Positions 9,558 to 44,346 are shown, numbered from the stretch's first letter. The stretch: 64,000 nt of DNA from an uncultured archaeon (GCA_964442255.1 CAYTYC010000001.1:32694-96693); one strand, 5' to 3'. The notes: a model not told the origin generated them from the letters alone. Translations and numbers: made by a program.

Positions 9558-9834
9558 ATTCGCAGGGCCTGCAGTCCGGGCTTTTCCCGCGGTCATACCA
9601 TCCCTTTGGAAGGGCTTCGTTTCCCTCAAAGTATATGTGCATCCTTCCATCAGAATCGCAGTACGCGTTTTCCAGTTCCCCCACATACTTGTAGCAGGGC
9701 GCAACGCATTTTTCGTCCCCGCTGAAGGAAGGCAGCTTGTCCGTTCCAGTGTAGCCCGTCAAAAAATAGCCCATTATCACGCCGATTCCCAACGCAATGA
9801 ACCCGTAAGCCAGAACGCTTTTCATAAACCTCAT
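9541..9834 (-). CDS. Membrane-anchored Cys-rich hypothetical protein
   Basis: N-terminal TM, several Cys. Confidence 0.6.
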   Translation of the reverse strand: MRFMKSVLAYGFIALGIGVIMGYFLTGYTGTDKLPSFSGDEKCVAPCYKYVGELENAYCDSDGRMHIYFEGNEALPKGWYDRGKSPDCRPCEFIKES

Positions 9835-9886
9835 TTCACTCCCTAAGATATTCGCCTTTCTTATTTAAATCTTTTTTCTTATTCAC

Positions 9887-9978
9887 GTCAGGCGGTTTAA
9901 TGCATCGGCTTTCAGGCCGATTGTTCTTTTTGACCCTGATTTTATGGATGCCCCGCCCTTTAGGGCGGGAGGCAGTCA
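9887..9978 (+). ncRNA. Structured element family B, copy 1 (IS605 right-end / TnpB omega-RNA-like)
   Basis: hairpins ATCGGC/GCCGAT and CCCCGCCC/GGGCGGGA, ends GCAGTCA; covarying homologue at 43481. Confidence 0.6.
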
Positions 9979-10031
9979 TTTTTTACGCCGAATCGTTAAA
10001 CTTATATACCCCAAACCCTTATATTTTACAA

Positions 10032-10631
10032 ATGGCTTTCAAGGTTCACTGGACAATTATTCTGCCCATTGCGACAGCCATACTCGGCATTTATGAGATA
10101 ACGTTGGAGGCAATTTCCCCCCTTAACTGGATTTTTGCCGCCCTCATCTTCATCATGGCGGGACTGATGTTTTACAGGTCTTTCACCGCAATGAGGGAAG
10201 AAGAAGAGGAAGAAGCAGGGTTTGAAGAGGAAAAGCAAAGGGCGCCGTCAAAATCCTTGGTTGCACAGGAAAACCTTCCATACAGGCTGAGAAGGCCGGG
10301 TTCAGAGGCCGCTGAAAAACTGGAGCTGGAGGACTTTTTTGTATCCAGGCCCCCGGAAAGGAAGCCCGCCCAAAAACAGGTTCAAAGGACGGCTCGAAAA
10401 CCGTATTCCGTGCAGCCCGCGCAAAAAGCCCCGCCCGCAAGGCCTTTCGCAAAACCCGTTTCCCCTAAGCCCACGGCAGCGGGAAAAGAAAAGCCTTTGG
10501 CTGAGGTCTTAAAGGAAAGGATTTCAGCAAAACCCGAAAAGCCCCCGGCACAGTCTCCGGCAAAGGAAACCGGCCTGAAAAAGAAAAAAGAAAAAGCGTT
10601 AAAGGAACTCAAAGACCTTTTCAGCCAGTAA
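10032..10631 (+). CDS. Two-TM protein with Pro/Lys-rich tail
   Basis: hydrophobic N-terminus, low-complexity C-terminus. Confidence 0.7.
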   Translation: MAFKVHWTIILPIATAILGIYEITLEAISPLNWIFAALIFIMAGLMFYRSFTAMREEEEEEAGFEEEKQRAPSKSLVAQENLPYRLRRPGSEAAEKLELEDFFVSRPPERKPAQKQVQRTARKPYSVQPAQKAPPARPFAKPVSPKPTAAGKEKPLAEVLKERISAKPEKPPAQSPAKETGLKKKKEKALKELKDLFSQ

Positions 10632-27165: not shown

Positions 27166-27186
27166 TTTTATTTACTTTAATTGTAA

Positions 27187-27281
27187 CGGGCCCGGTGGGA
27201 ATCGAACCCACGACCTACAGCTTAGGAGGCCTGCGGGGTTCTGGAAGAACCTTGCCGCCCTATCCACTAGGCTACGGGCCC
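27187..27281 (-). tRNA. tRNA-Arg(CCU) with 22-nt BHB intron at 29/30 (27231-27252)
   Basis: full cloverleaf after intron removal; BHB with GCGG/CCGC helix and CA|A, AG|G bulges. Confidence 0.92.
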
Positions 27282-27327
27282 ATGAAAAACAATTGAACCA
27301 AGAAGAATTTAATCTTTGCTGTGGGCT

Positions 27328-43450: not shown

Positions 43451-43480
43451 ACCGCGTGCCGCCGAAAAAGTTTATTCTGC

Positions 43481-43578
43481 GTTAGGGGGTTTAATGCCTT
43501 GCCCCTGAGGGCGATTGTTTAACTGACTTTGCCAAATGAAAAATCAGATGCCCCTGCCTTCCGGCAGGGGAGCAGTCA
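43481..43578 (+). ncRNA. Structured element family B, copy 2
   Basis: GGTTTAATGC, hairpins TTGCCC/GGGCGA and CCCCTGCC/GGCAGGGG, ends GCAGTCA. Confidence 0.6.
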
Positions 43579-44346
43579 TTTTCCCCTTACAAAGCCGTCA
43601 AACGCTCCAACCGTTTTTTTGTAGTCTTCCCTTCTGAAGGCCAGCACATAGCCCAGCCCCACAAACGCCCCGAAAACGTGTATCAGCGCATCGCTCGGCG
43701 TTTTCTCTTCGCGCTGCCGTCCTTCCTCTGTTTCCGCAATCTTTTCCTTCACAACCCCGATTTGCCTATTCAAATCCTGCGCCCTGTTCAAATCCCCCTC
43801 AAGGATTGCCTTGTTCTGGTTCTCCCTTATTTCTTTTACCTCTTTCTCCATTGCCTTCCTGCTTTCCTCAAAAATTTTACCGTAAGCAACAGTTCCCAGC
43901 CCGAAAAGCAAAAGCATTGCAATGAACGCAAGCACAGTGTTCTTTGGCTTAACCATGAACGCGGCGGCAATCATTCCTGCCGTTCCGCCGCTTGCCCCAA
44001 CCAACGCGTACTGCGGAAAAACAAGGAGAAAAGCGGCTGCGGAAATAAAGCCTGAAAGAAAAAAAATTCCCACAACATGTTTTCCCTTTAGTGCGCGCTC
44101 CAGCACCAACCCAAAAACAAGGAAAGAAACCGAGTTCAATAAGAGGTGGCTTGCCCCAATGTGCACGAACATGAAAGTGAAAAGCCCTGAAGGCTGCCGT
44201 AAATAGAATTCCAGTGCCTCAATCTTTTCCAACGGAATGAAGAAACCCATGTTTGAAAGGAAAAGATATGAGAGAATGAGCGCAGAAAACAAAATAAGGG
44301 TGGCTTTTGCTTTCTTCACTTCGTCCAAAAAAATTTTTGTGTCCAC
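43576..44346 (-). CDS. Rhomboid intramembrane serine protease
   Basis: HxxxxHxxxN, GASG, HVFG. Confidence 0.88.
   Translation of the reverse strand: MDTKIFLDEVKKAKATLILFSALILSYLFLSNMGFFIPLEKIEALEFYLRQPSGLFTFMFVHIGASHLLLNSVSFLVFGLVLERALKGKHVVGIFFLSGFISAAAFLLVFPQYALVGASGGTAGMIAAAFMVKPKNTVLAFIAMLLLFGLGTVAYGKIFEESRKAMEKEVKEIRENQNKAILEGDLNRAQDLNRQIGVVKEKIAETEEGRQREEKTPSDALIHVFGAFVGLGYVLAFRREDYKKTVGAFDGFVRGK

Follow-up and report, generated by a model that had tools for sequence, protein, structure and literature searches.

The window analysed here, a 64,000-nt stretch from the genome of an uncultured archaeon (G000; assembly of 1.28 Mb, 93.8% complete), contains two related sequences at 9887–9978 (copy 1) and 43481–43578 (copy 2). 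The sequence at both places is as given in the original prediction, which had read the pair as orphan RNAs resembling a TnpB omega RNA. Copy 1 is located between divergent genes, one starting at 9834 (−) and the other probably at 10033 (+), and the sole ORF crossing it (9900–10631) is an upstream extension of the latter gene. Copy 2 is located between convergent genes, where its TCA (43576–43578) forms the TGA stop codon of a convergent 256-aa ORF (43576–44346, −). Both copies share the motifs GGTTTAATGC, GATTGTT, GATGCCCC, and GCAGTCA, with a mean column identity of 75% (136/146 nt aligned). Neither tnpA nor tnpB is present in the window, as had been stated; the only matches in the genome lie on contigs C21 and C9. 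At gathering score, Rfam recognizes only three tRNAs in the whole window. With the limit relaxed to E ≤ 10, no family scores above 23.9 bits on either copy, compared with cut-offs of at least 37, and the Rfam models named in PMC12558985 are absent from these matches. In the tRNA-Gly(TCC) of the window (27186–27282, −), 33 nt are inserted in the region of the anticodon arm, presumably as an intron.

Copy 1, with boundaries inferred at 9883–9979 (+), extends 4 nt further to the left and 1 nt further to the right than originally drawn. It is assigned to subtype A of a PATE-type family, composed of a left end, a short linker, and a right end, and scores 80.3 bits with R1, a covariance model built from family alignment A2. 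A TTAT at 9879–9882 (+) abuts it and is, by analogy to IS608, a candidate target and left cleavage motif (TAM). The conserved left-end box GGTTTAATGC (9894–9903, +) contains the presumed left guide AATG (9899–9902, +) as well as a TATA-like TTTAAT, and the same box is found in IS200 left ends of two related DPANN genomes (G041 and G047), a Thaumarchaeota MAG, and a Methanosarcinales MAG. It is followed by the left-end hairpin ATCGGC/TTTCAG/GCCGAT (9904–9921, +). Beyond the linker, GATG (9947–9950, +) is the presumed right guide, a role suggested by covariation of its fourth base among right-end loci; it lies directly 5′ of the right-end hairpin CCCGCCC/TTTA/GGGCGGG (9951–9970, +), whose stem is also given as CCCCGCCC/GGGCGGG. 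The presumed right cleavage motif (TEM), TCAT (9976–9979, +), ends 9 nt 3′ of the last paired hairpin base, and a T run occupies 9979–9984.

Copy 2 repeats this arrangement as a PATE-type element of subtype B (43476–43579, +; R1 110.1 bits; boundaries inferred). It is preceded by a candidate target motif TTAT (43472–43475, +) and contains the left-end hairpin TTGCCC/CTGA/GGGCGA (43499–43514, +), a GATG (43547–43550, +) 5′ of the right-end hairpin CCCCTGCC/TTCC/GGCAGGGG (43551–43570, +), and the presumed right cleavage motif TCAT (43576–43579, +). Two further features of the original description were likewise found, namely a TATA-like TTTAAAT upstream of copy 1 (9864–9870) and T-tracts after both copies (6 T after copy 1, 4 T after copy 2).

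Each window copy can form two plus-strand hairpins, one following the GGTTTAATGC box and one, GC-rich, near the 3′ end. Relative to shuffled sequences, plus-strand folding yields z = −2.6 for copy 1 and −1.8 for copy 2, and the minus strand also beats its shuffles. Across the eight full copies in the genome (see below), 91.9% of the cells in the two hairpins are paired compared with 82.7% after shuffling (0/500 shuffles reach the observed value), and pairing falls to 35–53% when the hairpin partners are slid against each other. Double-sided changes occur at 3 of 14 stem pairs, and these separate subtypes A and B. The sequence and the eight-copy pairing thus confirm both stretches, their shared motifs, and the two hairpins with compensatory changes. 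The additional outer stem that had been proposed (GTCAGG/CCTGAT versus GTTAG/CTGAC) has no fixed homologous partner across copies. The TGAC/GTCA pseudoknot can indeed form in both window copies but not family-wide, being present in 2/8 full copies, the window copies only; a partner 4-mer for TGAC arises in 31–47% of shuffled linkers, and three copies ending in GCCA retain TGAC uncompensated. The element ends, GT(C/T)AGG... and ...G(T/C)CAT, are not mutual inverted repeats, and the hairpins lie on the plus strand in 8/8 full copies. Owing to G·T wobble pairs, only one strand folds in this way, a feature as compatible with DNA as with RNA. Between boundaries of the kind originally drawn, the copies measure 85–99 nt and are too short for a transposase. 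C/D guide, H/ACA guide, and kink-turn readings were discarded, since the copies have no box motifs in common.

The two window copies had been counted as a pair, whereas the family comprises 11 members in G000, eight full and three partial. A nucleotide profile (nhmmer) derived from the two window copies detects these 11 places, and R1 finds the same ones (E ≤ 5e-4, 36–114 bits), the full-length matches scoring 77–114 bits with E down to 3e-20. The genome search with a covariance model, which the prediction itself had proposed, thereby recovers all 11 copies; ten further R1 matches with E 0.2–0.9 were left out of the count. The partial copies are a 5′ half on C9 and 3′ halves on C8 (at 51071) and C36. 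Subtype A consists of copy 1, the copies on C27 and C6, and the C9 half, while subtype B consists of copy 2, the copies on C18, C1 (at 13355), C11, and C8 (at 15457, which has lost an internal segment), and both 3′ halves. The C27 and C6 copies are 99% identical at unrelated loci, and copy 1 is 82% identical to the C27 copy. Copy 2 shares 88–92% identity with three other subtype-B copies, and four subtype-B copies are mutually 85–92% alike, compared with 49–62% between subtypes. Each of the 11 copies lies between genes or borders a gene end. Several weak R1 matches (E 0.2–0.6) lie inside the first 350 nt of contigs (C7:81–160, C35:255–346, C15:86–176, C17:101–146, and C19:164–209), which suggests that other GC-hairpin repeats break the assembly at contig starts in G000.

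The 5′ and 3′ halves of copy 1 align to the LE (left end) and the RE (right end), respectively, of complete IS200 elements. In G047 (contig C117), GTTAGGTGG..ATACC and a hairpin precede a 141-aa ORF with a Pfam Y1_Tnp match of 96.3 bits, and 3′ of this ORF lies GGATACC-hairpin-GGAGGATGTCA followed by T's. G041 (contig C31) harbours a complete element with left end, structured leader, Y1 transposase gene, and right end, and the ends of this element match the 86-nt ORF-less copies of the same genome. The homology extends further: The 5′ halves of the window copies align with the left ends (alignment A5), and the 3′ halves with the right ends (alignment A6), of the IS200 elements of G047, G041, the Thaumarchaeota MAG (L068), and the Methanosarcinales MAG (L054). 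Moreover, a left-end profile matches in L068 (E 2e-8) and L054 (E 0.003) immediately before tnpA, while upstream of four haloarchaeal tnpB genes it gives non-significant matches only (E 0.1–0.2). As a side observation, the TnpA proteins of this IS200 group (L024, 1593–2018; L170, minus strand; L068, 2021–2494) carry G-K-(S/A/C)-G-R at the place where many Y1 transposases have a tyrosine-containing motif; the HUH motif and the C-terminal Y-x-x-x-Q are kept.

Because their halves are homologous to the ends of complete tnpA-bearing IS200 elements, both window stretches are very probably non-autonomous IS200/IS605-family elements of the PATE kind (palindrome-associated transposable element). Each element consists of a left end (box GGTTTAAT(G/A)C plus hairpin), a 25–35 nt linker, and a right end (GATN, an 8-bp GC hairpin, 5–6 nt, and TCAT), with the transposase gene missing. 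The family thus belongs to a kind of element already known and does not represent a new guide RNA. PATE-type elements and their complete IS200 parents are thereby documented in DPANN archaea of the Iainarchaeota type, and within the literature searched, that on Iainarchaeota and transposable elements, we found no paper linking the two. The homology of the halves, the multicopy and patchy occurrence, and the pairing rules of the right end are direct results of the comparisons.

The right end follows a module, GATN, 8-bp hairpin, AGGATG, TCAN, that is spread far beyond this family. A pattern of this module, with two 4-nt stem segments, loop, and spacer left free, was scanned against a collection of species-representative genomes and matched at least 120 stretches, 80 of which were fetched. 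Among the loci listed, the carriers are mostly Halobacteria and Methanosarcinales, together with one Thaumarchaeota MAG, DPANN labelled Iainarchaeum, Woesearchaeota, Micrarchaeota, and Nanoarchaeota, and some bacteria. A same-strand ORF of at least 60 aa ends no more than 400 nt before the motif in 56 of the 80 fetched loci; 22 of these ORFs encode TnpB (PF07282 and/or PF01385), 5 encode Y1_Tnp, 7 are unrelated host genes, and 22 match nothing in Pfam. Such an ORF is missing from the remaining 24 loci, many of which lie at contig ends. The module closes TnpB elements in Halobacteria, actinomycetes, a cyanobacterium, and relatives among the Iainarchaeota. The resemblance to IS200/IS605 right ends, recognized in the original prediction, is therefore one of homology, as the same module ends Y1-transposase and TnpB elements alike. 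With its two N complementary to each other, the signature finds TnpA-only as well as TnpB right ends in Archaea and some Bacteria and aids the annotation of element boundaries and omega-RNA 3′ ends.

The 80 loci contain 32 distinct right-end stems, and the four free stem positions are fully paired in 65/80, compared with a mean of 11.5 and a maximum of 20 for shuffled partners. Further, the N of GAT[N] complements the nucleotide that follows GTCA in 69/80 loci (shuffle mean 34, maximum 46), T going with A in 41/41 and A with T in 25/29; these counts correspond to few independent covariation events, because the two states follow two clades (haloarchaea T/A, others A/T). The right motif TCAT/TCAN ends 9–10 nt 3′ of the hairpin foot in these elements. 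At the left side, 12 of the 14 copies whose 5′ end is intact (G000 7/9, G041 5/5) have a TTAT before the left end, 20–26 nt ahead of the left hairpin; base for base, this TTAT complements the AATA/AATG that directly precedes the hairpin. Two subtype-B copies (C1:13355 and C8:15457) have TTTAA instead. By analogy with IS608, TTAT would serve as left cleavage motif and insertion target. The flanks of the elements are T-rich on both sides, which would mask any short target-site duplication. At least four T's start at the cleavage motif in 9/10 right ends, more regularly than in a random flank. Stem pairing and the covariation of guide and cleavage site fit the rules established for IS608.

We propose the following route. 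An IS200 element would have lost its core and kept both ends, and a Y1 (HUH) TnpA supplied in trans would move the resulting copies by single-strand peel-and-paste transposition. The top strand would fold into the two hairpins, both of which TnpA would bind, and the 4 nt 5′ of each hairpin would pair with the cleavage motifs, TTAT on the left (also the insertion target) and TCAT on the right. Since TnpA needs single-stranded DNA hairpins, the stem compensation would reflect selection on DNA for transposition rather than RNA function. The AT-rich upstream box and the downstream T run are most simply explained by the T-rich target context, i.e., TTAT followed by T's.

In the work on Haloquadratum walsbyi (PMC3119063), PATEs are described as arising from IS605-type transposons by core deletion. 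The G000 family resembles them, as portrayed there, in being too short for a transposase, in lacking terminal inverted repeats while bearing near-terminal palindromes, in its conserved 5′ targeting and 3′-terminal oligonucleotides, and in its lost core and multicopy occurrence, with subfamilies both homogeneous and heterogeneous. The right-end pattern also matched two loci of H. walsbyi (L046 and L062). In contrast to those PATEs (PMC3119063), the host is a DPANN archaeon of the Iainarchaeota type whose genome measures 1.28 Mb, the parental element is an IS200 with tnpA only instead of an IS1341/TnpB element, and both hairpins are retained with a 25–35 nt linker (92–104 nt in total) compared with a 52-bp single-palindrome form.

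The geometry likewise follows Helicobacter pylori IS608, as given in PMC3201880. Both systems have subterminal imperfect palindromes on one strand at both ends. In both, the cleavage motifs are paired by guides of 4 nt located 5′ of each hairpin foot, and the right motif begins with TCA. Measured from the hairpin foot, the left cleavage motif lies 19 nt in the 5′ direction in IS608 and ~20–26 nt here, and the right one lies 10 nt in the 3′ direction in IS608 and 9–10 nt here (PMC3201880). In IS608, the left cleavage motif doubles as the target, which is TTAC there and TTAT-like here (PMC3201880). Unlike IS608, the present elements have GC-rich stems of 6–8 bp with TTTA/TTCA loops and carry no genes, and their pairing rules are drawn from covariation, not biochemistry. 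PATE-like elements of Geobacillus stearothermophilus, as covered in PMC10055086, are similarly gene-less, have the LE and RE of elements that bear tnpA or tnpB, and are expected to undergo mobilization in trans; in the IS200/IS605 elements of this species, TAM and TEM covary with the DNA guides, as they do here. However, the G. stearothermophilus PATEs are reported to carry TnpB omega RNAs often (PMC10055086), whereas the parent here is without tnpB and left-end sequence stands before the right hairpin. With TnpB omega RNAs and haloarchaeal sotRNAs, as presented in PMC12558985, the window copies share the right-end class's terminal stem-loop and tail, which in TnpB elements mark the end of the omega RNA. 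They differ in that tnpB is neither adjacent nor present in cognate form, that the sequence upstream of the hairpin is not a scaffold, and that a T run occupies the guide position.

The distribution of the family is patchy. At E ≤ 0.01, R1 matches 5 of the 61 genomes of the order, G000 included, with nine matches in G041, two in G047, and one weak match each in G023 and G048. Among eight genomes of the same family, searched with the stricter filters used for large sets, R1 yields none. Three of the 86-nt copies of G041 have the same sequence, and a fourth deviates from it at a single base; the flanks of all four are unrelated. Patchy, multicopy, and recently amplified, the family therefore shows the pattern of a mobile repeat and not that of a conserved RNA gene. 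Y1_Tnp genes occur in 4/5 element-bearing genomes compared with 14/56 others. Three longer G041 copies (L035, L039, and L041; ~215 nt) have the right end at their 3′ terminus, while the usual first 25 nt give way to a shared ~130-nt extension that forms three or four additional hairpins and is joined to a variant of the left-end box; the extension may represent either captured sequence or a left end of greater length.

Among contigs from three public DNA runs of one study, those of two runs contain copy 1 as in the window; there is no joint skipping it, and the loose ends at copy 1 in these contigs are only cross-matches to the C9 half copy. No public RNA run is listed as containing the locus. 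No empty site for the element was found among the DNA-run contigs, metagenome contigs, and same-family genomes. A metagenome search with the neighbouring 256-aa protein returned one distant locus (34% identity) and no close strain, and orthologues in the same-family genomes are 36% identical, too distant for a comparison of insertion sites. Since neither an empty site nor a strain-specific insertion was seen, mobility in G000 is inferred.

G000 encodes two Y1 transposase genes, on C21 and C9. The C21 locus (G000:C21:4189–5760; L018, 224–1794) is a complete IS605 element in which a 139-aa Y1 tnpA overlaps a 384-aa tnpB, the only tnpB of the genome; its product is intact, with HTH, OrfB_IS605, and TNB domains. 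The ends of this element are formed by AT-rich hairpins ATAACCTAA/TTAGGTTAT and a tail GGTAGTTCAC that resembles the right-end tails of TnpB elements in the relative G058. The C9 locus (G000:C9:47097–47591; L020, 1462–1956, minus strand) is a solo gene for a 165-aa Y1 transposase with an HUH motif and Y-x-x-x-Q near the C-terminus, which we take as marks of an intact enzyme. The catalytic tyrosine sits on the C-terminal helix (PMC3201880). C9 TnpA is 32% identical to the G047 IS200 TnpA. Inspected by eye, its gene is flanked upstream by GGCGGTTTATGC and a hairpin and downstream by GATAC, a hairpin, GAG, five nt, and TCA, i.e., the layout of the window elements with diverged sequence. Run with filters off beside the Y1/TnpB loci on C21 and C9, R1 reaches at most 10.6 bits (E 0.47), and short-word BLAST of the family against these two loci gives exact words of at most 13 nt, which is chance level. 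As no transposase of G000 has matching ends, the partner would be the C9 gene, an unassembled gene, or a lost gene, and the copies may be stranded or served by C9 tnpA.

The original prediction had interpreted the two stretches as stand-alone TnpB omega-RNA scaffolds that act in trans and are maintained because their structure is under selection. On this reading, transcription would begin at the AT box upstream, the RNA would fold into a scaffold with the right-end hairpin at its end, and a TnpB encoded elsewhere would use it. The resemblance behind this proposal is real, since the right-end class is common to TnpB elements: The 3′ module is that of 22 TnpB-bearing elements among the 56 ORFs, and TnpB genes ending in the same motif, which the prediction had suggested looking for, exist in the relatives G003 (same family) and G042, with the same hairpin and tail. 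G000 also has its one intact 384-aa TnpB, and PATEs carrying omega RNAs used in trans are discussed in PMC10055086. Nevertheless, we judge this proposal very improbable and do not uphold it. The sequence before the terminal hairpin is a left-end homologue, unlike the ~75 nt preceding the hairpin in haloarchaeal TnpB elements, the complete relatives encode TnpA only, and R1 does not match the ends of the G000 tnpB element. Additionally, the element-bearing genomes G041 (nine copies), G047, and G023 give no TnpB match at a completeness of 75, 89, and 99%, respectively. Archaeal transcription terminates at oligo-T, so that the T run found from the cleavage motif onward at nearly all right ends would leave little or no guide. 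A check for guide targets in the downstream sequence, also part of the original proposal, was negative, the 16 nt after each copy having no notable second match in G000. At gathering score, Rfam detects no omega-RNA or sotRNA family on six TnpB loci; the sole match is an unrelated antisense family on L079.

A domesticated small RNA (~60–95 nt), or a terminator or insulator between packed genes, with TTTAAT as promoter and the T run as stop, would account for the position of all 11 copies in intergenic space or at gene ends, for the TATA-like box in the left end with T runs after the element, and for the strand-specific fold conferred by G·T wobbles; that the terminal TCA is the stop codon of a convergent gene in 4/20 copies points in the same direction. 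Strand-specific folding is, however, equally needed by the transposed top DNA strand, and complete transposons, in which box and hairpins function in transposition, conserve them to the same degree. Half copies exist, and the absence from the eight same-family genomes searched, together with the patchy occurrence in the order, is unlike a conserved RNA gene. We therefore regard domestication as improbable, although less so than the omega-RNA scaffold. Chance similarity, or ordinary Rho-independent-like terminators with GC hairpins, might be invoked because GC hairpins and T runs are common and because weak sub-threshold Rfam matches point to terminator-containing families (rnk leader, RybB), but full-length matches of 77–114 bits and the conserved unpaired boxes with transposon-end homology cannot be chance. 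The profile and R1 family matches and the transposon-end alignments refute this explanation, to which we assign next to no probability. The PATE-type reading thus removes one candidate "orphan guide RNA", its structure and covariation being explained by DNA-level needs of IS200/IS605 transposition, and it advises that covarying two-hairpin intergenic repeats in small archaeal genomes be tested first as fusions of IS200/IS605 ends.

A more speculative extension, to which we give little credence, is that a structured, TTTAAT-driven RNA of ~60 nt, containing the right-end hairpin and terminating at the T run, modulates TnpA or TnpB in trans or insulates convergent genes, or that the family has adapted to land on stop codons. 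The copies whose terminal TCA is the TGA stop of a long convergent ORF are copy 2 (43576–43578), G000:C8:15538–15540, and L023 and L039 of G041, with ORFs of 259, 308, 156, and 358 codons. Removal of copy 2 between TTAT and TCAT would produce an in-frame TAA with the same C-terminus. Tolerated TTAT sites on such a TAA stop amount to 128/2277 in G000 (~5.6%, by a crude ORF call), i.e., an expectation of ~1/20, against which 4/20 represents a mild enrichment. The adaptation is conceivable because TTAT is complementary to a TAA stop and the TCAT end restores a TGA stop; if it were true, the element would land exactly on stop codons of convergent genes in a very compact genome and leave the protein unchanged.

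A short sequence, TTTACCCTGATT, directly follows the right end in two copies of different subtype (C27:11300–11315 and C8:15541–15556). With one change, it recurs on C36 at about 330 after GTCAT and in the copy 1 linker (9926–9941) just before a TTAT. A repeat family was ruled out by 49 scattered one-mismatch matches genome-wide, and TTTACCCTGATT may be a trace of flank capture or tandem insertion.
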